A stretch of 64,000 bases of DNA, taken from contig CAYSYT010000003.1 in the NCBI GenBank assembly GCA_964435195.1, forward strand, positions 554-64,553. The letters run 5' to 3'. Source of the stretch: an uncultured Christensenella sp. GTDB taxonomy: Bacteria > Bacillota > Clostridia > Christensenellales > Borkfalkiaceae. The stretch's first letter is position 1. Every line of letters begins with the position of its first letter. Under the pieces are notes generated by a model. It searched no databases. It was given only the letters and a program-made list of their open reading frames with translations, and was not told the DNA's origin. The translations under genes were made by a program, and so were the position numbers. Positions 3,938 through 52,816 of this stretch are shown piece after piece.

Positions 3938-6900
3938 TTAAGCGTCGATAGTCGATATGCAGAGCGTGGTTTCTTCGAGTACGTCGAGTAAAACTCTTAC
4001 CGTATCGAGTGAAGTAAACATGGTAACGTTGCTTTCGGTAGCGACTTTTCTTATAACGTAGCCGTCGCTCATTTGGTCGGACGCGCCGACGTTACTGGTA
4101 TTTATTACGTAAGCGATATAACCTTGACGTATAGCGTCTTGAATTTCTTCGCTGCCGTCACTTATTTTCCCTACCTGATGCGTACGTATGCCGTTACTCT
4201 TTAAGAAGTTAGCCGTACCTTTGGTCGCAACGATATTAAACCCGAGGTTGTAAAATCTGCGCATAAGCGGTAACGCTTCTTCTTTATCTTTATCGGCAAT
4301 AGTTACGAATACCGTTCCGTAGTTTTGCAAATGCATACCCGACGCCTGCAAAGCCTTATAAAGAGCGCGGTTAAGTTTATCGTCGTAGCCTATCGCCTCG
4401 CCGGTAGATTTCATTTCGGGCGACAAATAAGCGTCTATACCCCTTATTTTATTGAAAGAGAATACCGGAACTTTAACGTACCATCTCTTCTTTTCTTCGG
4501 GGTAGATATCGAAAATGCCTTGTTCTTTAAGGCTCTTGCCCATAATGACTTCGGTGGCGATATCAGCCAAACTGTAGCCCGTCGCCTTGGAAAGGAAGGG
4601 AACGGTTCTCGAAGAACGGGGGTTTACTTCTATTATATATACTTTTTCGTTTTTATCAACTATAAATTGGATATTGTAAAGACCGACGATACCTATACCC
4701 AATCCGAGTTTTTTTGCGTACTGCAATATCGTGCCTTTCACCTTGTCCGATATGCTGAACGTCGGGTAAACGCTGATACTGTCGCCCGAATGTATACCCG
4801 TTCTTTCGACGAGTTCCATTATACCGGGAACGAAAACGTCTCTGCCGTCGCAGATAGCGTCCACTTCGACTTCTTTACCGATAATGTATTTGTCTACCAA
4901 AACGGGCTTGTCTTCGTCTACTTCAACGGCTGTTTTTAAGTAATGGCGTAAACCTTCTTCGTCGGCGACGATTTGCATTGCCCTGCCGCCCAAAACGAAA
5001 CTCGGCCTTACGAGTACGGGGTAACCTATTTTAGCCGCCGCCTTTACGCCGTCTTCTATTTTGGTAACGGCACAGCCGTCGGGTTGCGGAATATCGAGTT
5101 TCTTCAATATAGCGTTGAATAAATCTCTGTTTTCGGCTTTATCTATGGCTTCGCAGTCCGTACCGACGATTTTTACTCCGCGTTTATGCAAAGGTTCTGC
5201 AAGGTTTATAGCCGTCTGCCCGCCGAGGGAAGCGATAACGCCTTCGGGATTTTCAAATTCTACGATATTCATAACGTCTTCCGTGGTAAGCGGTTCGAAA
5301 TAAAGTTTATCGCTCGTGGTGTAATCGGTCGAAACGGTTTCGGGATTGTTATTTATTATAATGGATTCGTAACCGCATTTTCTTATCGTGTTAACGGCGT
5401 GTACGGTCGAATAGTCGAACTCTACGCCCTGACCGATACGAATAGGTCCTGCGCCCAAAACGACGGCTTTTTTCTTTTTCGTCAAAATCGAATCGTTTTT
5501 GCCCGTATAGGAAGAATAAAAATACGGTATATACGCGCCGCTGTGGAGAGTATCGACCATTCTGAAAGCAGGCTTAATATTTTCGTCCTTTCTCTTTTGA
5601 TAAATTTCGATTTCTTTTTTATTCCACAACTTTGCGACGTATTTATCGGAAAATCCCATTATTTTCGCTTGTTTTAATACTTCTAACGAATCAACGTTGT
5701 TTTTAATCGTCTTTTCCATATCGACGATTTTTTTGAAGGATTCGAGGAAGAGCGGAGTTATCATAGTAAGTTTATAAAGTTCGTCTATACCGATTCCGCG
5801 GCGAATGAGTTCCGCAACCGCGAAAACGTTATCCGATTTGAATTCTTTAAGATATTCTTTAATTTCCGTATCGGTCATACCGTCGAATTTTGCAAGATGC
5901 AAGTGGCAAACTCCGATTTCGAGAGAACGAACGGATTTAAGCATACATTCTTCGAGCGACGAACCTATGCCCATTACTTCGCCCGTAGCCTTCATTTGCG
6001 TGCCTAACGTATTCGGTACGGAAGCGAATTTATCAAACGGGAATCGCGGAAATTTTGCGACTATATAATCGAGGCTCGGTTCGTGAATCGCGGTAGTTCC
6101 CGCAACTTCGATTTCGTCGAGTGTCATTCCGACGGCGATTTTCGCCGTTACCCTTGCTATCGGGTATCCGCTCGCCTTGGAAGCAAGCGCAGACGAACGG
6201 GAAACACGGGGGTTAACCTCTATAAGATAATATTCGCTGCTGTTGGGGTTAAGAGCGAACTGAACGTTACAACCGCCCTCGATTTTAAGTTCCCTTATAA
6301 TTTTTATCGCGCTGTCGTTAAGCATTTTAAGGTCGTGGTCGTTAAGCGAAAGTATAGGCGCAACGACTATCGAATCGCCCGTGTGTACGCCTACGGGGTC
6401 AACGTTTTCCATTCCGCAAATGGTTATCGCGTTATCGGCAGAGTCGCGCATAACTTCGAATTCTATTTCTTTATAGCCCTTTACGCTCTTTTCGACGAGT
6501 ATTTGATGAACGGGAGATAATTTGAACCCGTTGGTTGCTATTTCGATAAGTTCGTCGTCGTTATAAGCGAATCCGCCGCCGGTTCCGCCGAGCGTGAACG
6601 CGGGACGCAAAACGACCGGGTAACCTATATCGTGCGCGGCTTTCAAAGCCTCGTCCATATTATACGTAATTTCGGAAGGAATGGTCGGTTCGCCTATGGA
6701 CTGACACATTTCTTTGAAAAGTTCTCTGTCCTCCGCCCTTTCTATACTGTCGCTGTTCGTTCCGAGCAAAGCAACGCGACATTCTTTAAGAACGCCTTTC
6801 TTTTCGAGCTGTATAGCAAGGTTAAGCCCCGTCTGACCGCCTATACCGGGGACGATGGCGTCGGGGCGTTCGTAACGGAGAATTTTTGCAATATATTCGA

Positions 6901-9498: not shown

Positions 9499-10201
9499 TT
9501 GCCCTCAACCTCCTTTCGATAAGTTTAATGATAAAGGTAAGAAAATATACTATTGCAAGATAAAAGAGCGCTGCCACAAACATCGGTGCAAGAAAATTTG
9601 CAAGCTCGTTACCGCTGCCTATTATTTTAGCAACCAAAGTTAAATCGTAAAGCCCACCAACCATAGAAACGATGGAAGTTTCTTTAACGAGCGCGATAAT
9701 TTCGTTACCGATAGACGGTATAACGTTCTTTATTGCTTGCGGAATTATAATTTTAGTCATAGTTTTAGAATACGTAAGCCCTAACGCTCGTCCCGCTTCC
9801 GTTTGCCCTATATCAACTGATAATATTCCTGCTCTAATCGATTCGGAAACATATGCTCCGGAGTTTATACCAAAAGCAAGAATTGCTACGATTTCCATAG
9901 GAAAGCCCCTTATAGCAAATACAACGAAAGCCATAATAAATAATTGCAACGCCATAGGCGTTCCCCTGAACACCGTAGTATATACGTCGCAGATAACGTT
10001 AAGTACACGCATAACGGGATTCTTTGACGGAACTATTTTTACTATAGCAACGAGCGTTCCTAAAATTACGCCGATGATACTTGCGCCTATCGAAATTAAG
10101 ATAGTACACCAAAGACCTTTAAATATCATCGACATATATTCGCTACTCGAAAAAATTTTAACGAGATTCTCAAAAAACCCTGCGCTTAAATTATAAAACA
10201 T
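9485..10201 (-). CDS. amino-acid ABC transporter permease (His/Glu/Gln/Arg family)
   Basis: 238 aa multi-TM protein with the conserved EAA-type loop [23 protein letters not shown]. Confidence 0.9.
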
Positions 10202-21958: not shown

Positions 21959-24598
21959 TCAATTTTTAGTTTCTTCTATCAAATAACATTCGATAAAGTC
22001 GCCGACTTTAATATCGTTAAATCTTTCGATGGAAATACCGCATTCATAGCTTTGCGCGACTTCTTTTACGTCGTCTTTAAAGCGTTTAAGTTGCAAAACG
22101 TTGCCTTCGGTAATCATAACGTCGTCGCGATAAATACGAAGTTTGCCGTTGCGTACGATTTTACCGTCCGTTACGTAACAACCTGCAACCTGACCGACGC
22201 CGGAAATCTTAAACACTTCGCGAACTTCGGCTTTGCCGAGATATACTTCGGTAAATTTAGGTGCAAGCATACCTTTAAGCGCGTTTTGAACGTCTTCGAT
22301 AGCTTCGTAAATAACTCTGTAAAGTTTAACGTCTACGCCGCTTTTTTCCGCAATCTGTTTTGCGTTGGAATCGGGGCGTACGTTAAAGCCTATAATAATA
22401 GCCTTTGAAGATTCCGCAAGCATAATATCCGATTCTTTAATCGCGCCTGCCGCCGCGTGAATAACGCTAACTTTGACTTCTTCGTTAGAGAGTTTTTCCA
22501 ACGACTGTTTAACCGCTTCTACCGAACCCTGAACGTCCGCTTTAACGATAATATTAAGCGTTTTCATATCGCCTTCGGCAATCTTATTGAATACGTCGTC
22601 AAGCGTAACCATTTGCGACGCTTTAAGCATATTTTCTCTTTCTCTGTTCTTTCTTTCTTCCGCAACGAGTTTGGTCAACTTTTCGTGTTCTACCGCGTAA
22701 AGAATATCGCCCGCGTTAGGAACTTCGTCAAGGCCCATAATCGATACCGGCGTAGAAGGTCCTGCGGAGGTAACCTTTCTGCCCTTATCGTCGTTCATTG
22801 CTCTTATTTTACCCGTTACCGTTCCGACGACGACGCTGTCCGAAACTTTCAACGTGCCGTTTTGAACGAGAATAGTTGCGACGGGTCCTTTACCTTGGTC
22901 GAGTTTTGCTTCGATGACGACGCCCTTCGCCTTTCTGTTCGGGTTTGCTTTCAAATCTTTTATTTCTGCGAGAAGATTTACGTTTTCCAAAAGATTTTCC
23001 ATACCATCTCCGGTTTTCGCCGAAACGGGACAAACGATAACGTCTCCGCCCCATTCTTCGGGAAGCAATCCGTGTTCGGTAAGTTGCGTTTTAATTCTTT
23101 CGGTATTCGCTTCAGGTTTATCTATTTTATTCATTGCGACGATAATGGGAACGTCTGCCGCTTTCGCGTGGTTTATCGCTTCTACCGTTTGAGGCATTAT
23201 TCCGTCGTCGGCAGCGACGACCAAAATCGCTATATCCGTCGCCTGCGCGCCTCTCGCTCGCATAGCCGTAAACGCTGCGTGTCCGGGCGTATCGAGGAAG
23301 GTTATAACCTTTCCGCCGACGGAAACCTGATAAGCGCCTATATGTTGAGTAATACCGCCCGCCTCACCCGCGGTAACGTTGGTTTTTCTGATTCTGTCAA
23401 GTAACGAAGTTTTACCGTGGTCAACGTGTCCCATAACGGTAACTACGGGCGGACGACGAACGAGATTTGCTTGGTCGTCGACTTCGTTATCGAAACCTTC
23501 GCTCAAAACGTCTTCTGCGGTCTTATCGAGTTTAAGCTCCAATTCTACGCCTATATCCGCTGCGATAAACGCCGCCGTATCGAAATCGATGGAATCGTTA
23601 ATAGTTTTCATTATGCCTTCTTTAAAAAGGCGTTTGGTTATTTCCGCCGCGGTTATACCGATTTTTTCGGACAAAACTTTAAGCGGAATCATTTCGGTAG
23701 TCATTACCGCTTTTTCGATTTTAATAGCGGTATTTTCGGCTTTCTTTTCCTTTTTAACCGGACGGAATTTACGGTAACCGGTTTTATTTTCGTCGAAATC
23801 GTCTATATCGACTTGATTTTTAATAAGCGACCGTTTATTTACCGTGCGTTTTTCGTCGTAAGATTTTTCGTTCGTCTGTTTCTTTTTACCGAAACTTCTC
23901 TTATCGGCGGTAGGAACGATAGGCGGAGCAACGTACGTTTCGCGCGGTTTTTTCGCGCCGCCCGAAGAACCGTTGCCGCTACCCTTGTTAAACTGCGGTT
24001 TATCGGTACGGGTCTTGTTAAACCCGTTCTTATCTCTATTATAACCCTCTTTGTTGTAGCCCTCTTTCGCGCCCGTTCTCTGCGGACGGTCGTGAGATAT
24101 AGGTCCTTCCCTGCGAACTATAAACGAAGGTCTCGGCGCTTCTTTAACGACGTATTCTTTTCTTTCGGGCTCGACGGGTTTAACAGAAGGCTGCTGCGTT
24201 TCCGTCTTTTCGGATTTAACGGGTTCGTCAACCTTTTCGGAATTATTTTTTTCCTTCGGCTCTTCCGTTTTCGGAACGCCGTCTACCGACCGGCTCGACG
24301 TATCTTCCGCAACATTTACCACGGTTTTTTCTTCTACATCGGGAATTTTTTCGATTTTTTCCTCAACGGGTTCGGGCACGGGTGCGAAATCGGGTTCTGC
24401 AACCGGTACTGTTTTTATTTCAGAATCTTCTTTCTTTTCGTTAAAAAGCCTCGATTTTTCTTCAAGACGGTTTTTTACCGATTTAATACCCGAAACGTAT
24501 TCGTTTGCAGATTCTTTCAAACCTTCCAACTTGCCGCTTTCATAGAGGTCTCTTATTTTTTTCAAACTTTCGTTACGAATTTCTTTTTTATCAGCCAT
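21959..24598 (-). CDS. infB: translation initiation factor IF-2
   Basis: G-domain motifs [17 protein letters not shown] and NKID, with a low-complexity N-terminal region. The start is set at MADKK (ATG 24598) after a GGAG RBS. Confidence 0.96.
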
Positions 24599-24608
24599 TA
24601 AATTTCTC

Positions 24609-24923
24609 CTATCCTCTCTCGATAAAATCATTTTCCGCATTGTCGACTATTGCCGACGCAAGCCCTTTATCGGATATAGCCATAACTTTTGAATTCTCTC
24701 TGTGAGTAAATTCTTCTAATTTTCTGCCGTTGCTTTGCAATAGCGTGCAACCGAAACGTTTTGCTAATTTTTCGGCGTCTTTAAAAGTGTTTTCGCTTGC
24801 CGTTTCGCAAACGAGCACCAAATACGCTTTTTTAAGCGTAGCCACCGCGTTTAAGCCTATTTTATACTTTCCCGTACGCATTGCGAACCCTACGAAGGTT
24901 TCGGCTTTAGTTCTCTTTTCCAA
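24609..24923 (-). CDS. ylxQ: L7Ae-family RNA-binding protein YlxQ
   Basis: 104 aa; L7Ae/L30e-like, in the conserved nusA-infB position. Confidence 0.8.
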
Positions 24924-25193: not shown

Positions 25194-26279
25194 TTATTCT
25201 TCGCTCGGCAATTCGTCCGAAATCACGCCTTCCTCATTCAAAGCGGCGCTTTCGCTTTTAACGTCTATCTTCCAACCGGTAAGACGTACTGCGAGCCTTG
25301 CGTTTTGACCGCTCCTTCCGATAGCAAGCGAAAGTTTATCGTCGGGAACGATAACCCTTGCGTTGTTTTCGCCTTCCAATTGAATAACTTTAATTACGCG
25401 TGCGGGCGAAAGCGCTTTCGCGATAAATTCAAGCGGGTCTTCGCTCCACGGAATTATATCTATCTTTTCTCCGCCGAGTTCGGCGACGATTGCGTTAACG
25501 CGCGCGCCCTTGTTACCTACGCATGCACCGAGAGCGTCGACCGCGGGGTCTTCGCTGTAAATAGCGATTTTCGTTCTCTGCCCGGGTTCTCTCGCAATGC
25601 CTTTAATAACGACTACACCCTGTCTGATTTCGGGTACTTCGTTTTCGAAAAGACGTTTAACCAAACCGTTTGCCGTTCTCGAAACGACTATTTGAGCGGC
25701 TTTGCCGGTATTCTTTACTCTCTTAACGTAAACGTTAAGTTTTTGATTAAGTTCGTATTTTTCACCGGGGACTTGGTCGTTGGGAAGCAACACGCCTTCT
25801 ATTTGATTTCCGCCGATTTCGACGTAAACGTTTCCGTCTTCTATGCGGCGTATGGTACAAGTCATAAGTTCGCCTTCTTTGTCTTCGAACTCGTTAACGG
25901 TGTTTTCGCGTTCTATTTCGCGAAGTTTTTGCATAACGACCTGTTTAGCCGTTTGCGCCGCTATTCTGCCGAAATCCTTGGTCGAAATTTCGTTTGCTAT
26001 AACGTCGCCGGCCTTGTATTTTTTACCGTTAACGCAAGCGTCTTCCACCGAAATTTCCTTATCGGGGTCGACGACCTCGTCAACGACGTTTTTCACACTG
26101 AAAATTCTGATACCTTTTTTTTCGGGCGAAAGCCTTACTTCTATACCGCTAACGTCTCCCGTGTGCTTTTTATACGCAATTGCAAGCGCGTCTTCCAAAG
26201 CGGAAATAAATTCCTCGCGGGAAATACCTTTTTCTCTTTCCAAAGCGTCAAGTGCCAAAAAGAAATCTTGATTTTGCAT
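25194..26279 (-). CDS. nusA: transcription termination/antitermination factor NusA
   Basis: 361 aa; N-terminal domain, S1 domain and two KH domains (GACVGNKGARV, AIGRSGQNARLA). Confidence 0.96.
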   Translation of the reverse strand: MQNQDFFLALDALEREKGISREEFISALEDALAIAYKKHTGDVSGIEVRLSPEKKGIRIFSVKNVVDEVVDPDKEISVEDACVNGKKYKAGDVIANEISTKDFGRIAAQTAKQVVMQKLREIERENTVNEFEDKEGELMTCTIRRIEDGNVYVEIGGNQIEGVLLPNDQVPGEKYELNQKLNVYVKRVKNTGKAAQIVVSRTANGLVKRLFENEVPEIRQGVVVIKGIAREPGQRTKIAIYSEDPAVDALGACVGNKGARVNAIVAELGGEKIDIIPWSEDPLEFIAKALSPARVIKVIQLEGENNARVIVPDDKLSLAIGRSGQNARLAVRLTGWKIDVKSESAALNEEGVISDELPSEE

Positions 26280-26337
26280 TATTTTTCTCCTCGTTAAACA
26301 AACGTTTTTATTTAATACGTTTTTAATTACATCCTAT

Positions 26338-34987: not shown

Positions 34988-37558
34988 ATGAACGGTATGA
35001 AAAGTTTTAAAATAAAAAAGCAATCTTTTATATTAACATTCGTGTTTTTTCTCGTTTTATCCGTAATTGCCTTCGGTTTTTCCGTAAAAACCGCAAATGC
35101 GGAAGTATCGGTTGCCTTAAATCTTTATCAACCGAATACCGTTATGGAATATAAGGAACTTTCCTCTCCCGACGATGCTTGTTACAGAAACGGAAAAATA
35201 GCCGTTATCGACAACAATAAACTTTTAGTCTATAAAAACGGAGCATATTCCGAACAACAATTTACCTCGTTAAAGCAGGTAAAGTTTTTCGACGACGATT
35301 ATCTTATCGTTTCGGATAATCAAGGTACGCCTAAATATTATAAAATCGCAATCGACGATTTAACTCAAAAAGAAGACCTTAACATCGGCGGCAACGATTT
35401 CGACCTTAACGGCGATTATCTGGTTTCGTCGTATGGTACGAGTATTTGGCTTTACGAACGCTCAAGCCTAACGTCGGGTCAAGATTACGGTAATAAAATT
35501 GACACAAACACACCCGTTTGCATAAACGGAGACGGTAAAATTTTCTTCGTTAGTGGCGGCAAACTTTTGTATTCTACCGTTAACGATATGTCTACAGAAA
35601 TTCACGTATCCGATAAAAGTCCGTCTTGTATTTTAGCCGATGCAGACTACGTATACTATTCGGTCGAGAATAAAATCTATAAAAAATCGCTAAACGGCAA
35701 TAACGAAACCGAACTTGAAATCAATACGACCGTATACGATAAAAGCAAAAATCCGTACACCAAATACGATTTAGGCAAACTTTTCTCCGTTACGGCAATG
35801 TCTTTTAAAAGCGGCAATTTACTCGTAACCGATAAAAGGTTAAACGCCGTTCAAGAATTTGAAATCGACCACGAAAAAAATCAACTGATTTTTACGGGTT
35901 TTGCGGTAGCAAAAGGCAAAACCGCGTTTAACAGAATAGGTTCATCGAACAAAGCGATAGACAGAAAAGGAAACACCGTTGCCGTATTAGACGATAAAAA
36001 ATTAACTATTATTACCGATACCGAAAACGGTAAAGAATACCGCAACGTTATTGCGTCTAAAACGGGCATTGCGCCACGCTATATCGCGCTCGGCGACGCC
36101 ACCTTTTTGCTGGCGGAAAATTCCAACTGTTTCAAAATTTTCGATTTAAAAACTCAAACGGTAAAAATAAGCGGAAATTTCGGAGCGGACATAACCGACG
36201 TATATTTTAACGACGGTAAATATTACTTTTTAATCAAATCGGGCAGCAACACGTCGGTATATTCTCTGAATGAAAATTCCGACGACGCCACTCCCAAAGA
36301 AATTATCAACCCGGGTCCCACCACGAATACGGGAGACCCCGTATTTACCGTAGATACCGACGGAAACGTTTATATAACCGACGATTTTAACGATAAGGTT
36401 AAAAAATATTCTCTTAAAGAAAACGGTTCTTACGACGCTTCCACTACGGAAATAAATTTTTCCGTTTCGAATTTCGTCGTAGGGATAAAAGAACTTTACG
36501 TTGACCTTGCAGGTAACCTGTTTGCGCTTAAAGAAGGTAATATATACTACCGTGCCACAGACGGCTCTATCGAAATTTATACGCCTGACGTAACTACGGA
36601 AAACAAAGTTACCTCTATGTCTATGAGCTTCGATAAAGACCAAGTATACTTTATCTGCCAAAACGAGGAAACGATACTGTCTACTACTTCCCTACCCAAC
36701 CTGACGCTTGCCGATATAGAAAAAACTTCCGACTATAAAACCAAAGGCGAAAGCGCGCGAGTAGAAAATCTTAAAATATTTACGACGAATATAAACGCAC
36801 CCGTTTATTCGGTTACCGCAACCGATAACGGCTTCGATTTTATCGAACTTATAGACGGCGAAAATAAAGAATTCGCCATAATTTACGACTACACCATTCA
36901 AGGTCAAACTTTTTCCGTACTCGTCGGCGAAAACAACGGTAAAACCGTAGAAGTTATAGTAAATAAAAACAATCTTACCGAAAAGCAAAACGTTCTGTCT
37001 TCGTCAAAATTCAGCGAAGTTTTCATCGCGACGGACGTAAATATGTATTACTTGCCGATAATAACGCTAAACGACGATTACTGTCTTATCAAAAACGGCG
37101 CGCCGTTAAGACTTTCCAAAAAAACACGCGTATCGGTAGAAAAAACTTTTAATTTCTTAAACGTCGATTATTATTACGCAAGCGCGGATATAGACGGAGA
37201 AATTTATACGGGGTATATTCCCGTAAATTTCACCGTGGAAATGCTTTCGCAAGACGCTTTAAAAGAAAAATTCACCTTTGAAAAATTAAAAGCAACGCAC
37301 GTTTTTTCGGACGAAGCGTTAACTACGGCAATTTGCGAAATAACCGAAACCGCCACCGTAAAATATTACGGAACGGAGAACGGCGTCGCGCTTATCAAGT
37401 ATGAAAAATCCGACGGTACGGTCGTTATAGGCTACGTTTCCGCCGATAAACTTTTCACGCCGCCGAATACGGTAATAAGAAACGTTTTGATAACGCTGCT
37501 CGTTACCTTGTCGGTCGCAACGACTTCCGTATACTTTATATTGAGAAAGAAAAATTAA
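34988..37558 (+). CDS. large secreted beta-propeller-like protein with SH3b-like domains and a C-terminal TM anchor
   Basis: 856 aa. Signal peptide ending ANA-E, NHL/YVTN-like blades (DGNVYITD, GNLFALKEGNIYY), C-terminal SH3b-like repeats, and a TM helix followed by RKKN. Confidence 0.6.
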   Translation: MNGMKSFKIKKQSFILTFVFFLVLSVIAFGFSVKTANAEVSVALNLYQPNTVMEYKELSSPDDACYRNGKIAVIDNNKLLVYKNGAYSEQQFTSLKQVKFFDDDYLIVSDNQGTPKYYKIAIDDLTQKEDLNIGGNDFDLNGDYLVSSYGTSIWLYERSSLTSGQDYGNKIDTNTPVCINGDGKIFFVSGGKLLYSTVNDMSTEIHVSDKSPSCILADADYVYYSVENKIYKKSLNGNNETELEINTTVYDKSKNPYTKYDLGKLFSVTAMSFKSGNLLVTDKRLNAVQEFEIDHEKNQLIFTGFAVAKGKTAFNRIGSSNKAIDRKGNTVAVLDDKKLTIITDTENGKEYRNVIASKTGIAPRYIALGDATFLLAENSNCFKIFDLKTQTVKISGNFGADITDVYFNDGKYYFLIKSGSNTSVYSLNENSDDATPKEIINPGPTTNTGDPVFTVDTDGNVYITDDFNDKVKKYSLKENGSYDASTTEINFSVSNFVVGIKELYVDLAGNLFALKEGNIYYRATDGSIEIYTPDVTTENKVTSMSMSFDKDQVYFICQNEETILSTTSLPNLTLADIEKTSDYKTKGESARVENLKIFTTNINAPVYSVTATDNGFDFIELIDGENKEFAIIYDYTIQGQTFSVLVGENNGKTVEVIVNKNNLTEKQNVLSSSKFSEVFIATDVNMYYLPIITLNDDYCLIKNGAPLRLSKKTRVSVEKTFNFLNVDYYYASADIDGEIYTGYIPVNFTVEMLSQDALKEKFTFEKLKATHVFSDEALTTAICEITETATVKYYGTENGVALIKYEKSDGTVVIGYVSADKLFTPPNTVIRNVLITLLVTLSVATTSVYFILRKKN

Positions 37559-38010: not shown

Positions 38011-38700
38011 TTATTCCGACACACCGTTTTCCACTACGGAATATTCCTCGTTTAGAATTTTTACCGTCAAATTCTTTTTACATTTCTTATTTAACGTAGA
38101 TATTACGATAAACCCTACTAAAACTAAAACGATAAAAATTGCCCATATACTGAAACCACAGATATTTGCAAAGCTACTCAATATATCATAATCATTACCC
38201 AAAAGTCCCTTCAAAATAAAACCAAAAACAATACTCATTATTGCCAAAGAAATACTACTGTATATAGTTTGATTTCTCATTAACTTTTTAGTTTCCTTTT
38301 CTCCGCCGCTTTTTTTAATCGCAGTATAATTTAACATAGAATATTCTTCTATATTATTTAAATTTCCGATATCAACAATTAAACTTTTAATACAGGTACA
38401 TATATAAACTAATGAATATACAACCGTAGCAAAGGGAAGGATACCAAAATCAAAAAGCAAGACACTATATCCTCCATCGCCAGCAATTATCGTTTTAGAA
38501 ATATTTAACACCTCATCAAAAAATGAAAAATTAACCTTTTCCATTAAACCATTTTCTAACGAAACGATTACCATTCTCTGACATATAGGTAAAAATACAA
38601 GCATTAAGATAAATATAATAGACAATGCGTCTAATATCAATTTATAAATACTAATTTTACCAAAATCCGACCTATACTTTAAATATTCTTTCTCTGCCAT
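38011..38700 (-). CDS. hypothetical multi-pass membrane protein (AT-rich, compositionally foreign)
   Basis: 229 aa with about 5 TM helices. It has very few CpG dinucleotides compared with its neighbours and is divergent from the XRE gene. Confidence 0.6.
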   Translation of the reverse strand: MAEKEYLKYRSDFGKISIYKLILDALSIIFILMLVFLPICQRMVIVSLENGLMEKVNFSFFDEVLNISKTIIAGDGGYSVLLFDFGILPFATVVYSLVYICTCIKSLIVDIGNLNNIEEYSMLNYTAIKKSGGEKETKKLMRNQTIYSSISLAIMSIVFGFILKGLLGNDYDILSSFANICGFSIWAIFIVLVLVGFIVISTLNKKCKKNLTVKILNEEYSVVENGVSE

Positions 38701-44788: not shown

Positions 44789-46389
44789 TAAAAGGGGAAA
44801 AGTTTTTCCCCTTTTATCGGTTAGTTTTATACTGTCGGTCCGCAAACGAAATCCGTTATATAGAACGTCGTTTTACCTCTGCCGCCTAATCTTATCGAAT
44901 TGTTTGAAGTTCCCTGTCCGTAATAACGTACGGTAACCCAACCCGAGCCTTCGTAACCTTCGGTAAGTTCCTCTCCGTTCATAAAGAATTTAATCGATTC
45001 GCTTTGATTTGTAATATGCGTAGTATTGTTTATATACACGTTCGTAAGTCCCGAACCGTTTTTGGGCATTATACAGAAATCTATATCTTGTAGTGCAGTG
45101 CTGTATACCTTGAATTCGAGATACTCGTAATTACCTATCGTTCCGCCGTTTCTGAGTCCTAATGCGTAATTACCGCCTGTCGAACTTGTATAATACTGCC
45201 ATACGTTGCTTCTGCCTTCGTATTCCCCCACGTAATCCAATACTACCGAACCGTCTCTCGGATTTCCGTTTACTTCAAGAAGCAAAGTGCTTGATTTTCT
45301 CTCGCCTGCGTTAAACACTATATCGTAAGCGTTGTAATAATATACGTCGAGCGTGAGCGTACCGTCGGCTAAAACCGTACCCTTATAAGCGTCCGCCTTG
45401 CCAGAGGGATATACGTTCGAATTATTTCCGCCGAACCACCTATCCGCATAACCGCGACCGTAATCGGTAACACTGCTTCCCGCTACGCCTTTTTTAACGA
45501 CCGTCTCGCGAATTGTATAAGCCGACGGGTTACTTGCCGTTCTTACGTAATGGTTTACCGTATACGTGGTATCGAAGAAGTTGTCTTCTTCCGCAAAATA
45601 CGGTATTCCGTCCGTTCCCGTCTTAAACAACTCGGTATCGAGTCCGCTAAACGCCATATCGGTATCGCTTTGTAAATAAGTAATTACGTTACCCGTATAC
45701 GTTTGCGCGTTTTCGCTTCCGAATACTCCGAGCGACAATCCGCCCATTCTCTTATCCGTACTCATCACCACGTAAACGTTTTCATACGTATTTACAAGCC
45801 CTGCTGCCGAACTTCCGTGTCCGCTTGCCGCGTTAAATCCTACCAACGCTCCGCTGTCTATCACGTTATTTGCTCTTCGAGTCGAAAAATCAACTACGAA
45901 AACACTGTTTTTCACGGTCGCGCCGTACGTCGTTCCCGCTATCATACCTACCGTATTTACGATGTTGTCGAATACGTATCCTCTTACGTAAACGTTTTCG
46001 ACCGTTCCCATAAGTTTTTTTGCAAGTATTCCGCCGCCCGTTATCGCCTCTTGATACAACACCGCATTGTAGAAGCCTACGTTCTTAACTACGCCGTCTT
46101 TACCTACCGTTCCGAACAATCCGTCGCCGTCGTAAATTCCGTTTGCTATTACGTACCCTCTTCCGTCGAACGTACCTTGGAAGCCGCGTGCGTTATCTCT
46201 GTAATACGCTTGTGCGGTCGTTAACGTATCGGGGGTTGCGCTTACTTTAGTGCTTGCCAAATCTATACTGTTACCGAGAACAAAATATCCGCCGTACGCG
46301 TCGGTATCGGCATCTCTTCCGCCCGCCAACGTTTGCAAACTTAACAATTCTTCAGCCGTGGTTATAACCTTCGTTATGAACAAGCCGTC
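44789..46389. repeat. direct repeat copy 1 (1601 nt)
   Basis: Covers the 3' 1563 nt of the 897-aa gene plus the terminator. It matched 47749-49348 at every position I compared, apart from a 1-nt T indel in the hairpin loop. Confidence 0.9.
44790..44815 (-). terminator. hairpin after the 897-aa gene (part of repeat copy 1)
   Basis: aaaagggga/tcccctttt stem. It is identical to the hairpin at 47750-47774 except for one extra T in the loop. Confidence 0.45.
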
Positions 46390-47520
46390 GGTTTCTATAA
46401 TATAGTCTTCGAATTCGATTTTAACGGTTTGATTGTCGTAAGGCTTGCCGTTTTCAAAAGCGGCGGTAACCGTACCCAAACTTAAAGTAACGTTACTTGC
46501 GACCACGCTTCCGACCTTAACCGACGGAGCGTTCGTTATTTCCGCTATTTCTTCGGCTGTAAGCCCCAAATCGTCGGCAAGAGAAAGCGTCATCGTGTTG
46601 TTTGAAAGGTCTACTTCTCCGAGAGAATTTGCTTGTTTTACGTCTTTATCGACACCGCTAACGATAACTTTACGAGCGTATTTACCCGTTTCGTCGGCGG
46701 TAACCGTATACGAAAGACCGTTTTCGAGTTGAACTTCCAACGCTTGAACGTCGTTAGTGAAACTTATTTCCAAAGTTGCGCCTTTTTTAGTAACCGTAAA
46801 ATTATCCTCAACGCTGTATTTGGAATTTTCGTTATAAACGAATTTCAAACTATCGTCAACGTCGTTAAGTCTTTTTACGATACCCGTTTTAGTTACGCTT
46901 ATCGCAGTGGTTTTTCCTACTACCTCGTTTACGCCTGCCAAAAGATTAGCGTCGTTCGTAGTATCTTCTTTATACGCTTTAAGCATAACGGTTGCGGCTG
47001 TTCTTTCGCTACCGCTTACGTTTTGAGTATAATAAGTAGTGCCGTCAACGGTTACGTAACCGCGGTAACTTATGCTTCTGTTATAACTTGCGGCAGGAAT
47101 ATCGTAAAGATAAACTACCGATTGCATAAAGTCGGTATCTTCGGTACATTCCGTCCATAAGTGAGTGGTAACGGTATCTCTTACCGTTTCGGTATTTTTT
47201 GTGAGTTCGCCGCCGCTCAAAACGTCTGTCGGAATGATTAAAGTACCCGTAGATACGCCGTCTTTAATATTGCCGTTGCCGTCTGTAAGTATTTGGTCGT
47301 ATACTTCCTTTTCCAATAAAACGAAGAATCTGATTCCTATCGGATTATTAGTTCTGACCGACGCACCGCCGTTTTTGTAATACGCCGAATCGTTAAAATC
47401 ATCTACGGAAGCGGTACGAACGTCTGCGCTTACGCCCATATAACCGAACGCAGCAAATAAACTTAATAAAAGTACGATAAATAATGTCGAAACTGAAAAT
47501 TTCTTAATCTTTGCCGTCAT
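44827..47520 (-). CDS. large secreted protein: variable N-terminal region plus a conserved GLUG/beta-helix-like and carbohydrate-binding-like C-terminal module
   Basis: 897 aa with a signal peptide. The motif GFQGTFDGRGYVIANG...GLFGTVG is typical of GLUG-type surface proteins. The C-terminal 520 aa are identical to those of the 1685-aa protein. Confidence 0.7.
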   Translation of the reverse strand: MTAKIKKFSVSTLFIVLLLSLFAAFGYMGVSADVRTASVDDFNDSAYYKNGGASVRTNNPIGIRFFVLLEKEVYDQILTDGNGNIKDGVSTGTLIIPTDVLSGGELTKNTETVRDTVTTHLWTECTEDTDFMQSVVYLYDIPAASYNRSISYRGYVTVDGTTYYTQNVSGSERTAATVMLKAYKEDTTNDANLLAGVNEVVGKTTAISVTKTGIVKRLNDVDDSLKFVYNENSKYSVEDNFTVTKKGATLEISFTNDVQALEVQLENGLSYTVTADETGKYARKVIVSGVDKDVKQANSLGEVDLSNNTMTLSLADDLGLTAEEIAEITNAPSVKVGSVVASNVTLSLGTVTAAFENGKPYDNQTVKIEFEDYIIETDGLFITKVITTAEELLSLQTLAGGRDADTDAYGGYFVLGNSIDLASTKVSATPDTLTTAQAYYRDNARGFQGTFDGRGYVIANGIYDGDGLFGTVGKDGVVKNVGFYNAVLYQEAITGGGILAKKLMGTVENVYVRGYVFDNIVNTVGMIAGTTYGATVKNSVFVVDFSTRRANNVIDSGALVGFNAASGHGSSAAGLVNTYENVYVVMSTDKRMGGLSLGVFGSENAQTYTGNVITYLQSDTDMAFSGLDTELFKTGTDGIPYFAEEDNFFDTTYTVNHYVRTASNPSAYTIRETVVKKGVAGSSVTDYGRGYADRWFGGNNSNVYPSGKADAYKGTVLADGTLTLDVYYYNAYDIVFNAGERKSSTLLLEVNGNPRDGSVVLDYVGEYEGRSNVWQYYTSSTGGNYALGLRNGGTIGNYEYLEFKVYSTALQDIDFCIMPKNGSGLTNVYINNTTHITNQSESIKFFMNGEELTEGYEGSGWVTVRYYGQGTSNNSIRLGGRGKTTFYITDFVCGPTV

Positions 47521-47666
47521 TATTCGTTACCTCCGAACCCCGTATAACCCTCGTCCCATTCGGGCGCCCATTGTGTTGCACCGTCGTTGCTTATCGTAAG
47601 AACTTCTTTCGTAACAAATTCGCTGTAATTAAGCCACGGTGTAACGTACTTGTTTTTTTCCTTCAT
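47520..47666 (-). CDS. small ORF (48 aa), translationally coupled to the 897-aa gene
   Basis: ATG at 47666 lies 7 nt after AAGGAGG. Translation: MKEKNKYVTPWLNYSEFVTKEVLTISNDGATQWAPEWDEGYTGFGGNE. Its TAA stop shares an A with the downstream ATG (TAATG). It is too short for the ORF track, whose shortest listed ORF is 60 aa. Confidence 0.5.
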   Translation of the reverse strand: MKEKNKYVTPWLNYSEFVTKEVLTISNDGATQWAPEWDEGYTGFGGNE

Positions 47667-47748
47667 AATTAACCTCCTTACTTTATCAAACCGCAAGCGG
47701 TTATTGATTTTAAAATTTCAATTAAGTCCGTAAGAAATTTAAAACCCG

Positions 47749-49348
47749 TAAAAGGGGAAAAGTTTTCCCCTTTTATCGGTTAGTTTTATACTGTCGGTCC
47801 GCAAACGAAATCCGTTATATAGAACGTCGTTTTACCTCTGCCGCCTAATCTTATCGAATTGTTTGAAGTTCCCTGTCCGTAATAACGTACGGTAACCCAA
47901 CCCGAGCCTTCGTAACCTTCGGTAAGTTCCTCTCCGTTCATAAAGAATTTAATCGATTCGCTTTGATTTGTAATATGCGTAGTATTGTTTATATACACGT
48001 TCGTAAGTCCCGAACCGTTTTTGGGCATTATACAGAAATCTATATCTTGTAGTGCAGTGCTGTATACCTTGAATTCGAGATACTCGTAATTACCTATCGT
48101 TCCGCCGTTTCTGAGTCCTAATGCGTAATTACCGCCTGTCGAACTTGTATAATACTGCCATACGTTGCTTCTGCCTTCGTATTCCCCCACGTAATCCAAT
48201 ACTACCGAACCGTCTCTCGGATTTCCGTTTACTTCAAGAAGCAAAGTGCTTGATTTTCTCTCGCCTGCGTTAAACACTATATCGTAAGCGTTGTAATAAT
48301 ATACGTCGAGCGTGAGCGTACCGTCGGCTAAAACCGTACCCTTATAAGCGTCCGCCTTGCCAGAGGGATATACGTTCGAATTATTTCCGCCGAACCACCT
48401 ATCCGCATAACCGCGACCGTAATCGGTAACACTGCTTCCCGCTACGCCTTTTTTAACGACCGTCTCGCGAATTGTATAAGCCGACGGGTTACTTGCCGTT
48501 CTTACGTAATGGTTTACCGTATACGTGGTATCGAAGAAGTTGTCTTCTTCCGCAAAATACGGTATTCCGTCCGTTCCCGTCTTAAACAACTCGGTATCGA
48601 GTCCGCTAAACGCCATATCGGTATCGCTTTGTAAATAAGTAATTACGTTACCCGTATACGTTTGCGCGTTTTCGCTTCCGAATACTCCGAGCGACAATCC
48701 GCCCATTCTCTTATCCGTACTCATCACCACGTAAACGTTTTCATACGTATTTACAAGCCCTGCTGCCGAACTTCCGTGTCCGCTTGCCGCGTTAAATCCT
48801 ACCAACGCTCCGCTGTCTATCACGTTATTTGCTCTTCGAGTCGAAAAATCAACTACGAAAACACTGTTTTTCACGGTCGCGCCGTACGTCGTTCCCGCTA
48901 TCATACCTACCGTATTTACGATGTTGTCGAATACGTATCCTCTTACGTAAACGTTTTCGACCGTTCCCATAAGTTTTTTTGCAAGTATTCCGCCGCCCGT
49001 TATCGCCTCTTGATACAACACCGCATTGTAGAAGCCTACGTTCTTAACTACGCCGTCTTTACCTACCGTTCCGAACAATCCGTCGCCGTCGTAAATTCCG
49101 TTTGCTATTACGTACCCTCTTCCGTCGAACGTACCTTGGAAGCCGCGTGCGTTATCTCTGTAATACGCTTGTGCGGTCGTTAACGTATCGGGGGTTGCGC
49201 TTACTTTAGTGCTTGCCAAATCTATACTGTTACCGAGAACAAAATATCCGCCGTACGCGTCGGTATCGGCATCTCTTCCGCCCGCCAACGTTTGCAAACT
49301 TAACAATTCTTCAGCCGTGGTTATAACCTTCGTTATGAACAAGCCGTC
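47749..49348. repeat. direct repeat copy 2 (1600 nt)
   Basis: Covers the 3' end of the 1685-aa gene plus the terminator. The offset to copy 1 is 2959 nt over most of the repeat and 2960 nt on the low-coordinate side of the 1-nt loop indel. Confidence 0.9.
47750..47774 (-). terminator. hairpin after the 1685-aa gene (part of repeat copy 2)
   Basis: Same stem as 44790-44815. Confidence 0.45.
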
Positions 49349-52300: not shown

Positions 52301-52816
52301 CGTTATAACGCCGTCGGTAACCGTGGCAATCGTCGTATCGTTTGATTTCCACTGTATTACGGCAAACTTATTCTCGACACCTCCTACGGTTACCGTGGCT
52401 TTTACCGAAACGTTATCGTCCTGCCAAATTTCGGTAGAGGTTTTATCGAGCGTAAGTACGGGGTAATATTGCGCGCCCTGTACCGTAACCGTACATACCG
52501 CTTCTGCGTCGCCGACTTTTGCCGTTACCGTCGCAGTACCCGACGATACAGCCGTAATTATACAATCGTATTCTTCGGTATTTAAGTCTTCCGCTACCGT
52601 AATTATTTTTACATCCGAAGATATCCACTCTACGGCGTCGGTAGAATTTTCCACGCTCGCACTGATTTTTTCAACGTTACCCGAACCTTCGATTGTAACC
52701 GAATAACTGTTCAAAGTTATTTTCGTTTTTTTGTCGTCGTTACCGCCGGAGCATCCGACGAAAACGAAACAGAAAACCATAACCATAGTTAAAACGGCAA
52801 TAATTTTATTCTTCAT
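47786..52816 (-). CDS. giant surface lipoprotein with Big_2 Ig-like repeats and two GLUG/beta-helix-like modules
   Basis: Lipobox VFVGCSGG. The start is set at ATG 52816 after an AAGGAG RBS. Architecture: about 4 Big_2-like repeats, module A, about 3 Big_2-like repeats, module B. Confidence 0.75.
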   Translation of the reverse strand: MKNKIIAVLTMVMVFCFVFVGCSGGNDDKKTKITLNSYSVTIEGSGNVEKISASVENSTDAVEWISSDVKIITVAEDLNTEEYDCIITAVSSGTATVTAKVGDAEAVCTVTVQGAQYYPVLTLDKTSTEIWQDDNVSVKATVTVGGVENKFAVIQWKSNDTTIATVTDGVITGVGIGETIITAYSTVDGREIEATLTVGVKDKVYFAIDEVSVKLAMTSGINEGEIAEKALNVTLTDKGEEKSVDGSVEWSSSDSDVACVDGSGKVTSGTKVGSAAITATYSYGDKIRTASTTVNTYKSVVELNESFGDVDLSVGSFRVALSELDIEGYNGIVKSGIGNTDNEGSVDGESLVIPTNGLSFGVQTLSIELSDRIFKREGLFVTKILKTASDVASITAAAGNRDDENDAYDGYFVLGNNIDLGATVINAPTDKVSSRKPTSGFQGTFDGRGYVLSNGKFNGNGGLFGTIGRNATVKNLSLVNAEFGSDNSNGSGLFAQKIFGTLENISVTATMTNSTTNNGTLCYASVGAKYRNVVISLVYSNTRELNSSSKSNNAVLAPYLPDETSVFENVYVITDMVYENSVALFDVNTANKRLYAEQGRGITAVRFGEESAVTFAELPKDIWRTVDGEVPYFNSEIGFVAKYSVTHYVEKRTQADSYEQYSQIVSKTAVGAKIEALPLNISGYAVDKSVSDTVASATVQTNGSTALKLYYRYQDSVAVSNSDGANAVIGDAAGKDSMFIRNIGTFQGKDNVYRFNSVNTSTYWERRAELMGVSNAWLVEKGYTELVFDLYFPSGNDVYMSAYTFENGAIVNKQLNGLTYKNVRDYQEYIQFYKDGTRQLNIASNTWYEVHVQFVDFSAGTLSRLFFISTVKDNDGYLYIANAQLKKTEFNAYFSGLNKNIDVTVGDTEEISIEKVVTGWGGKTGNLSLISYKSASDSVATVTADGVITGVKKGTTTITVEYKSGSVEVTETITVNVKDNVSLSVNEKDLILTQFVSDSSDISEKQLTVSLIVNGSNYNEPTYTWTSSNSDIVSVDANGLVKAGRISGIAIITVTWSELGEEYTATVRVQNVMPERAVDPLGDIDLTKTLTLSFAEDLKIDATDTATIKKVPQAWIGNVELQTALDGENVVITFVDGTPYGTQTLVLYFENFVITADGLFITKVITTAEELLSLQTLAGGRDADTDAYGGYFVLGNSIDLASTKVSATPDTLTTAQAYYRDNARGFQGTFDGRGYVIANGIYDGDGLFGTVGKDGVVKNVGFYNAVLYQEAITGGGILAKKLMGTVENVYVRGYVFDNIVNTVGMIAGTTYGATVKNSVFVVDFSTRRANNVIDSGALVGFNAASGHGSSAAGLVNTYENVYVVMSTDKRMGGLSLGVFGSENAQTYTGNVITYLQSDTDMAFSGLDTELFKTGTDGIPYFAEEDNFFDTTYTVNHYVRTASNPSAYTIRETVVKKGVAGSSVTDYGRGYADRWFGGNNSNVYPSGKADAYKGTVLADGTLTLDVYYYNAYDIVFNAGERKSSTLLLEVNGNPRDGSVVLDYVGEYEGRSNVWQYYTSSTGGNYALGLRNGGTIGNYEYLEFKVYSTALQDIDFCIMPKNGSGLTNVYINNTTHITNQSESIKFFMNGEELTEGYEGSGWVTVRYYGQGTSNNSIRLGGRGKTTFYITDFVCGPTV

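Follow-up and report, generated by a model that had tools for sequence, protein, structure and literature searches.

Two neighbouring secreted-protein genes of an uncultured Christensenella sp. share an identical 1.6-kb 3' module that is probably maintained by recombination

Overall architecture of the two genes

The window analysed in this study is a 64,000-nucleotide (nt) stretch of contig CAYSYT010000003.1 from an uncultured Christensenella sp., and positions given without a contig name refer to it. Two adjacent paralogous genes for secreted proteins, which we call the big gene and the small gene, end in two copies of one long direct repeat, and this repeat and the presence or absence of the small gene among strains are the subject of this report. 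We labelled the 1586-nt repeat A, the 1373-nt spacer between its copies X, the big-gene side Y and the side of a downstream TIM-barrel gene Z. An earlier note, made from the sequence alone, had called both genes giant, a description that suits just one of the two (1685 amino acids versus 897).

The small protein carries an ordinary signal peptide, not one of lipoprotein type, followed by a unique head (amino acids 1-271), a linker domain (272-377) and the shared module (378-897). The big protein starts with a lipoprotein-type signal (N-terminus MKNKIIAVLTMVMVFCFVFVGC, ending in …FVGC), the lipobox being judged by eye, and Pfam Big_2 domains were detected in 3 stretches at 74.4 bits against a cutoff of 22.8. 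The big gene represents an ancient internal duplication, in which the unit of Big_2 domains, linker and module occurs twice. The linker of the small protein is about 35% identical to its counterpart in the big protein, and the internal module of the big gene is an ancient copy that escaped homogenisation. The two-module architecture of the big gene was also found in contigs L001, L005 and L006. The coordinates of these features are listed in Table 1.

Table 1. Genes, repeat copies and associated elements of the locus
Feature	Start	End	Strand	Description
Small gene	44827	47520	-	897 amino acids; public-collection protein P0001
Big gene	47786	52843	-	1685 amino acids from TTG, or 1676 from ATG at 52816; strain ortholog P0008 (1676 amino acids)
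Third copy of the module, inside the big gene	50234	51688	-	Amino acids 386-870; 28.6% identical to A
Upstream open reading frame, 48 amino acids	47520	47666	-	Strong ribosome-binding site AAGGAGG; stop overlaps the small-gene ATG (TAATG); within X
Repeat copy A1	44804	46389	-	Last 520 codons, stop and 3' untranslated region of the small gene; equals the stand-alone 1586-nt contig L025
Repeat copy A2	47763	49348	-	Last 520 codons, stop and 3' untranslated region of the big gene; contigs L022 and L017 end 30 nt into A2, at 49319
Terminator-like hairpin after the small gene	44788	44817	-	Loop T5 on the plus strand; ribosome-binding site and ATG of the TIM-barrel gene next
Terminator-like hairpin after the big gene	47748	47776	-	Loop T4; 3' limit of the repeat; T4/A4 loop also in strains without X
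Segment X	46390	47762	-	1373 nt, unique: intergenic DNA, 48-amino-acid reading frame and small-gene head; repeat-bounded contigs L010-L013
Unit of X plus one A	46390	49348	-	2959 bp; missing from conspecific strains (window-L002 alignments; six pass-through contigs)

Identity and limits of repeat A

When we compared the two copies of A directly at an offset of 2959 nt, no mismatch was found over 1586 nt, an exact repeat far beyond chance expectation, of which a repeat finder alone had reported just the first 300 nt. The identity runs on for about 14 further bases through a palindromic, terminator-like hairpin, AAAAGGGGAAAAG(T4/T5)CCCCTTTT, as far as 44789/47749, and a single T indel in the loop is the one difference, in agreement with the earlier note. 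This indel was recovered in independent contigs assembled at k=31, with an A5 loop followed by the TIM-barrel gene in L007 and an A4 loop followed by X in L013. Past the hairpin the flanks of the two copies are unrelated, the small-gene side continuing with the ribosome-binding site and ATG of the TIM-barrel gene and the big-gene side with 265 nt of intergenic DNA. The identity covers synonymous sites, the 36-nt 3' untranslated region and the terminator. Since the window and the Logan contigs used below are probably short-read de Bruijn assemblies, in which near-identical copies are merged, "identical" means here indistinguishable at such resolution. Measured from the 3' end, repeat A accounts for 58% of the small gene and 31% of the big gene.

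On the gene-5' side the identity stops exactly at 46389/49348, where 13 of the 30 next positions differ. The first identical codon, GAC, encodes D378 of the 897-residue protein and D1166 of the 1685-residue protein, and the last 520 residues are the same in both, as had been noted before. Upstream of this codon the nucleotide identity drops at once to about 50%; in the codon-aligned comparison it varied from about 0.2 to 0.7 per 30-nt bin over the next 300 nt, and no mismatches were scattered inside A. Ahead of the module, a stretch of about 106 residues is still collinear between the proteins, with about 35% identity (37/107). The abrupt boundary between homologous but diverged sequence and full identity that the earlier note had described is thus borne out, as is every other detail of its sequence description that we could check. 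The divergence of the heads is ancient, with a nucleotide identity near saturation and low amino acid identity.

Contig structure in independent samples

The window strain recurs in sample SRR22923233, and we examined its Logan contigs (k=31) as an independent assembly. Their graph has the order Y-A-(X-A)-Z and breaks exactly at the repeat ends. The big-gene contig of this sample, L022, matches the window with no mismatch and one gap over 14.7 kb and stops at 49319, 30 nt into A. Contig L013 (1433 nt, 100% identical) comprises the last shared 30-mer of A, the T4 loop, the whole of X and 30 nt of the next A. Contig L025 from SRR22923233 is A alone, exactly 1586 nt long and identical to the window copy, and L007 opens with the final shared 30-mer of A, crosses the T5 loop and enters the TIM-barrel gene. 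The path Y-A-X-A-Z is the only one that uses every contig, possibly with more than one turn through X-A.

The same break points recur elsewhere. Contig L017 (SRR33013285, 99.0% identical) stops at 49319, L008 starts at the A tail, and L010, L011 and L012 carry X bounded by A. Recurrence of the break points across samples and strains excludes an artefact peculiar to the assembler that produced the window. Contig L010 (SRR33013286, 2990 nt) is of a different kind: it contains X and a whole A, it begins and ends with the same 30 nt and so forms a closed 2960-nt cycle, and it is unbroken at the X-A junction, unlike L012 and L013. This contig could have arisen because the Y junction was poorly covered, because the unit is amplified or because a circle exists.

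Presence and absence of the small gene among strains

The big-protein ortholog P0008 (97.8% identical) led to contigs L002 and L003, which share 98.9% identity with the window across 17.5 kb and run from the big gene directly into the TIM-barrel gene. The alignments of the window with L002 stop at 47749 and resume at 46389, with just one A present in L002; the alleles with and without X therefore differ by exactly one 2959-bp unit. The comparison with related genomes that the earlier note had proposed thus uncovered precise X-less alleles in conspecific strains.

For a census of strains we used a permease that is identical across them, which returned 23 contigs, of which ten were examined. Among these ten, six run from the big gene into the TIM-barrel gene (samples SRR33036530, SRR33036539, SRR33036515, SRR33036516, SRR33013287 and SRR33013284), two break 30 nt into A (SRR22923233 and SRR33013285), and two end earlier for unrelated reasons. 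Signatures of X were found in SRR33013283, SRR33013285, SRR33013286, SRR35641759, SRR17221326 and SRR22923233. Both allele states occur among consecutive run accessions, probably of one study. The small gene is a presence/absence polymorphism within one species. The earlier note had anticipated RecA-type deletion or amplification; an allele of the deletion type occurs in at least six samples, and amplification, although possible, was not demonstrated.

Strain comparison of repeat A

Between the window and strains of the L002 type, A differs at 26 of 1586 sites (1.6%) and the flanks by 0.9-1.3%, and the module carries about 10 amino acid differences. The two copies of A in the window differ at none of those 26 sites. 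Independent evolution of the copies since the strain split predicts about 26 differences, and in our calculation the Poisson probability of observing none is about 5e-12.

The junction contigs agree with this picture. At A positions 21/24 the window type has G/T in both the Y-linked L022 and the X-linked L013, and the second strain type has A/G in both the Y-linked L017 and the X-linked L012. In L010 the body of the A attached to X is of the second type at 23 of the 26 sites, and its X differs from that of the window at 7 of 1373. Since the junction copies share strain alleles and the A body of L010 is of the second type, A groups by strain and not by gene, which is the signature of concerted evolution. 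At least three X-bearing haplotypes were recognised (window/L013, L010/L012 and L011), and in L010/L012 the A tail beside X has window-type alleles at positions 1560 and 1569 on an A body of the other type. The 5' identity limit falls at the same nucleotide in both strain types, so this limit is old and later exchanges have kept inside it.

A second, more distant lineage gave a comparable result. Contig L004, whose TIM-barrel protein is 69% identical, encodes a small-type protein, P0010. Along its entire length, including the head, P0010 shares 35% identity with the small protein. The module C-terminal ends of P0010 and of the gene upstream of the TIM-barrel gene (L004 positions 1-548 and 4020-4570) are 92% identical in nucleotides and 89% in amino acids, the similarity covering the final 550 nt of the P0010 gene. 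Modules of different genomes are 38-45% identical in amino acids; set against this, the 92% nucleotide identity inside L004 argues that within-genome homogenisation of modules recurs. The L004 contig begins inside the module, and its assembly possibly broke at a more identical part of the repeat.

Predicted fold and distribution of the shared module

The AlphaFold model of the 520-residue module, built on a 25-sequence alignment, was confident (predicted local distance difference test score, pLDDT, 87; predicted template modelling score, pTM, 0.87). When we searched it with Foldseek, the N-terminal half matched the beta-helix of 3n6z (E 1.6e-5, probability 1.00), described in the PDB as a 'putative immunoglobulin A1 protease', BACOVA_03286, and the last ~150 residues matched jelly-rolls of the carbohydrate-binding module (CBM) types CBM4/11/22/29 (probability 0.96-0.99). 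The model thus depicts a beta-helix resembling that of IgA1 proteases, a beta-sandwich and a CBM-like jelly-roll. By its predicted fold module A belongs with 3n6z and the GLUG / IgA1-protease-like beta-helices, whereas its sequence does not fall within the Pfam profile. Neither module A nor the small-protein head had a sequence match in Pfam (E<=5), NCBIfam (E<=0.01; searched with the full-length proteins) or the PDB (E<=1), and no catalytic or binding residues could be assigned to module A from the 3n6z and CBM fold matches.

The full 520-residue module is rare and confined to a small clade, and its N-terminal subdomain occurs in 516 representative proteins, usually in 2-8 copies per protein. 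A GTDB genome scan with module A and a JGI metagenome scan with the small-protein head gave no matches. A word-indexed homolog search with the head returned one weak partial match, P0156, and missed P0001 itself, so absence there says little; an exact look-up of the 897-residue protein found no record, despite its listing in the collection. Module A is not a wall anchor and is most likely the glycan-contacting part of these proteins, presumably serving in cell-surface glycan binding or processing. The 5' end of the identity falls on the residues at which the folded beta-helix begins, which fits selection for intact modules but could be chance.

Proposed mechanism and alternative explanations

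Based on these observations, we suggest that ongoing homologous recombination between old paralogs keeps A identical, and that recombination between the repeats causes loss or gain of the small gene; we give this explanation a probability of about 0.72. The A copies would be the shared 3' modules of two old head-to-tail paralogous genes for secreted proteins. Non-reciprocal gene conversion or unequal exchange between sister chromosomes would keep them uniform, with exchange limited to the stretch whose similarity still permits pairing. In the heads and in the internal module of the big gene, divergence would be too great for pairing, and these parts would evolve independently; the abrupt 5' boundary would arise because the heads have diverged beyond recognition by recombination; the 3' limit would simply be the end of homology, just past the terminator. 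Since the A copies lie 1373 bp apart in direct orientation, this recombination could also remove the 48-residue reading frame, the small-gene head and one A as a unit, and DNA from a strain that has X could restore the unit. Such deletions are mechanistically simple and have probably occurred repeatedly, and lateral regain with crossovers in A is possible. Dependence on RecA, the direction of the polymorphism (loss versus gain) and the relative roles of conversion and unequal crossover are points that we infer.

The earlier note had proposed a recent gene-conversion or recombination tract between older paralogs. Recombination between older paralogs is supported by 0 differences between copies against 26/1586 between strains and by the shared strain alleles; homogenisation looks recurrent, however, and not like one recent event. 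Head swapping, which had also been envisaged, does not follow from the arrangement, since a crossover between 3' direct repeats deletes or duplicates the small gene and leaves the heads unexchanged.

Several observations weigh against the explanation given above. The second-type junctions come from sister samples (L017 from SRR33013285, L012 from SRR33013283) that are not demonstrably one genome. In L011 (SRR35641759) the last 65 nt carry T/G at A positions 32/36, and the contig stops where another A variant merges; this may reflect slight differences between the A copies of a third strain, or a mixed sample. Lateral re-introduction of X with crossovers inside A could likewise produce strain-typed A copies. 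Bubble popping in de Bruijn assembly merges near-identical copies and leaves the perfect identity and the copy number of exactly two unproven, and an X-less chromosome together with a separate X-A circle or a tandem array would give the same graph. Finally, the distant syntenic loci L001/L006 and L005 have a two-module big gene followed by the TIM-barrel gene with no small gene, and in the nearest outgroup, L004, the small-type gene lies on the other, downstream side of the TIM-barrel gene, so the age of the big-small adjacency is uncertain.

Among the rival explanations, the likeliest is lateral re-acquisition without intragenomic conversion, although we consider it unlikely. The resident chromosome would lack X, and X would move by transformation or DNA uptake and integrate by homologous recombination across A and the flanks, whereupon the A copies would take the haplotype of the recipient. 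The divergence of X (0.5%) is indeed lower than that of A (1.5-1.6%) and of the flanks, the mosaic A tail of L010/L012 is what crossovers inside A are expected to leave, and all distant syntenic loci lack the small gene at that position. However, a donor with A-X-A must already exist, which leaves the origin of the repeat and the nucleotide-exact shared 5' limit unexplained, and the separate lineage L004 shows within-genome module similarity of its own. Deletion between 1.6-kb direct repeats by RecA-dependent recombination is also mechanistically far easier than insertion, which speaks against this route. An improbable alternative is that one very recent conversion tract or segmental duplication arose in the window lineage, with no ongoing homogenisation. 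The absence of differences over 1586 nt, with one homopolymer indel, looks like such a young event, but at least three X-bearing haplotypes have the same nucleotide-exact 5' boundary, the second-type junction copies again share their own alleles, and partners resembling the heads, at about 50% nucleotide identity, would offer a one-off conversion no homology to start from. We regard as similarly doubtful the idea that the unit of X and A (2959/2960 bp) is a reversible cassette that is excised as a circle or arrayed in tandem and re-integrates via A. If it were true, the closed cycle of L010 and the mosaic A tails would be traces of cassette traffic, and the population could rapidly switch on, switch off or change the dosage of a secreted glycan-binding protein whose working module also occurs in a membrane-anchored partner.

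It is very improbable that the arrangement is an assembly artefact or a mixture, in which one A only exists and X-A comes from another locus, another strain or a free 2.96-kb circle. The source resembles a contig of a short-read metagenome-assembled genome, P0001 being listed on an NCBI contig of 64,864 bp; short reads are unable to bridge an exact repeat of 1.6 kb, and L010 closes on itself. Against this, junction k-mers join X to A on both sides in several independent samples (T4 tail into X; X into A in frame), and X has no other flanks in any recovered contig. The in-frame, collinear continuation of the X head into A, together with the full-length homolog P0010 in another organism, argues for a real gene, and a 2.96-kb circle would encode no replication function. 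Purifying selection on an essential module in place of recombination would fit the coincidence of the identity boundary with the start of the beta-helix; it is refuted by the identity of synonymous sites, the 36-nt 3' untranslated region and the terminator, and the module tolerates 26 nucleotide and about 10 amino acid differences between strains, so we give this idea practically no weight. Two further candidates were rejected: a simple 2959-bp tandem duplication, as X does not duplicate the big-gene sequence ahead of A, and a site-specific inversion or shufflon, as the repeats are direct and the repeat search returned no inverted ones.

Comparison with known systems

Classic cases of RecA-dependent gene conversion are tufA/tufB of Salmonella, the ribosomal RNA operons and babA/babB of Helicobacter pylori, and polymorphism shared between paralogs is a hallmark of conversion. 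The present locus resembles concerted evolution in that the paralogs of the window are closer to each other than orthologs are between strains, polymorphisms are shared, silent and non-coding sites are identical and the limits are sharp. It differs from the classic form in that homogenisation is partial, covering the 3' part with the terminator, and in that adjacent direct repeats also toggle one gene. Duplication and deletion between direct repeats are known from the duplication-amplification dynamics of the Roth/Andersson type. As in repeat-mediated deletion, the alleles here differ by one repeat plus spacer (2959 bp) with breakpoints in 1.6-kb direct repeats; unlike in tandem duplication, the spacer is the diverged head of an old paralog, and states of more than two copies were not demonstrated.

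Cassette variation is known from Rhs/CDI orphan toxin cassettes, pilE/pilS of Neisseria and vlsE of Borrelia. The locus shares with them a conserved recombinogenic segment common to genes with different variable parts at one locus. Unlike those systems, it lacks silent promoterless cassettes; each of its two genes is complete and encodes a signal peptide, and the small gene lies behind a terminator with its own ribosome-binding site and upstream reading frame. Since conservation lies in the 3' part and variation in the 5' part, recombination brings no new variable part into an expression site. Because both genes are complete and separately translatable, the locus is not a programmed cassette system.

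The processes at work are those of textbook concerted evolution with a repeat-mediated indel polymorphism and imply no new mechanism, and the protein family is uncharacterised. The locus is of interest as an unusually clean natural case in an uncultured gut anaerobe, in which one 1.6-kb module would homogenise two proteins and make one of them dispensable at high frequency. The three-domain module is fast-evolving between species and identical within a genome, which suggests that it is the functionally important and probably substrate-contacting part. Repeats of this kind also break short-read assemblies predictably, and the presence or copy number of the small gene would be mis-scored in most metagenome-assembled genomes. 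The theory of concerted evolution by gene conversion has been reviewed (PMC3924837), and a bacterial example has been described with long reads (PMC12046097).

Other features of the locus and the window

On the minus strand the order of genes is a DeoR regulator with a beta-elimination lyase, a solute-binding protein, two ABC permeases, a 988-residue Ig-like protein, DUF4838, the big gene, the small gene, a xylose-isomerase-like TIM barrel, a GFO/IDH oxidoreductase and a polysaccharide deacetylase. This is a chromosomal ABC-transporter carbohydrate locus, and a phage or tail-fibre origin is ruled out by these neighbours (ABC sugar transporter, DUF4838, TIM barrel, GFO/IDH and DeoR). A conspecific contig carries spoIIGA-sigE-sigG-like genes (Peptidase_U4 and two sigma factors), and the annotation of one family member places it in a metagenome-assembled genome of Clostridia, so the host, found in gut-type metagenomes, is likely a spore-forming member of the Bacillota.

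The 48-residue reading frame ahead of the small gene (MKEKNKYVTPWLNYSEFVTKEVLTISNDGATQWAPEWDEGYTGFGGNE) was predicted as a gene on four independent contigs. A 46-residue reading frame (1682-1822) occupies the matching position ahead of the small-type gene in L004, and the similarity between the two was not significant (170 of 2000 shuffles reached its score). In L001 the big gene is split at 9947-10010 into reading frames of 1021 and 536 residues with a 7-nt overlap; since the near-identical locus L006 has one intact reading frame of 1560 residues, this is likely a frameshift or a sequencing error. An Rfam search over 43-54 kb gave no match, and a promoter scan was uninformative, with 12 sites against 11.8 in shuffled sequence.

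The antisense open reading frames of 173 codons noted earlier are present in both copies of A (45703-46224 and 48662-49183); a real gene is unsupported, long antisense reading frames being common inside genes across the window. Long plus-strand reading frames also lie antisense to minus-strand ones at 22457-24601 and 25305-26297, with 315 and 394 residues inside 21959-24640 and 330 residues opposite 25194-26279. Between 34000 and 40000 the G+C content is 0.36-0.38, compared with about 0.42-0.46 elsewhere in the window. The sole long plus-strand gene of this region (34988-37558, 856 residues) has an ortholog in L002 with no Pfam match, and the protein encoded at 38011-38700 is just 86.8% identical to its L002 counterpart, compared with 97-100% for the other proteins. 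This segment may be variable or acquired.

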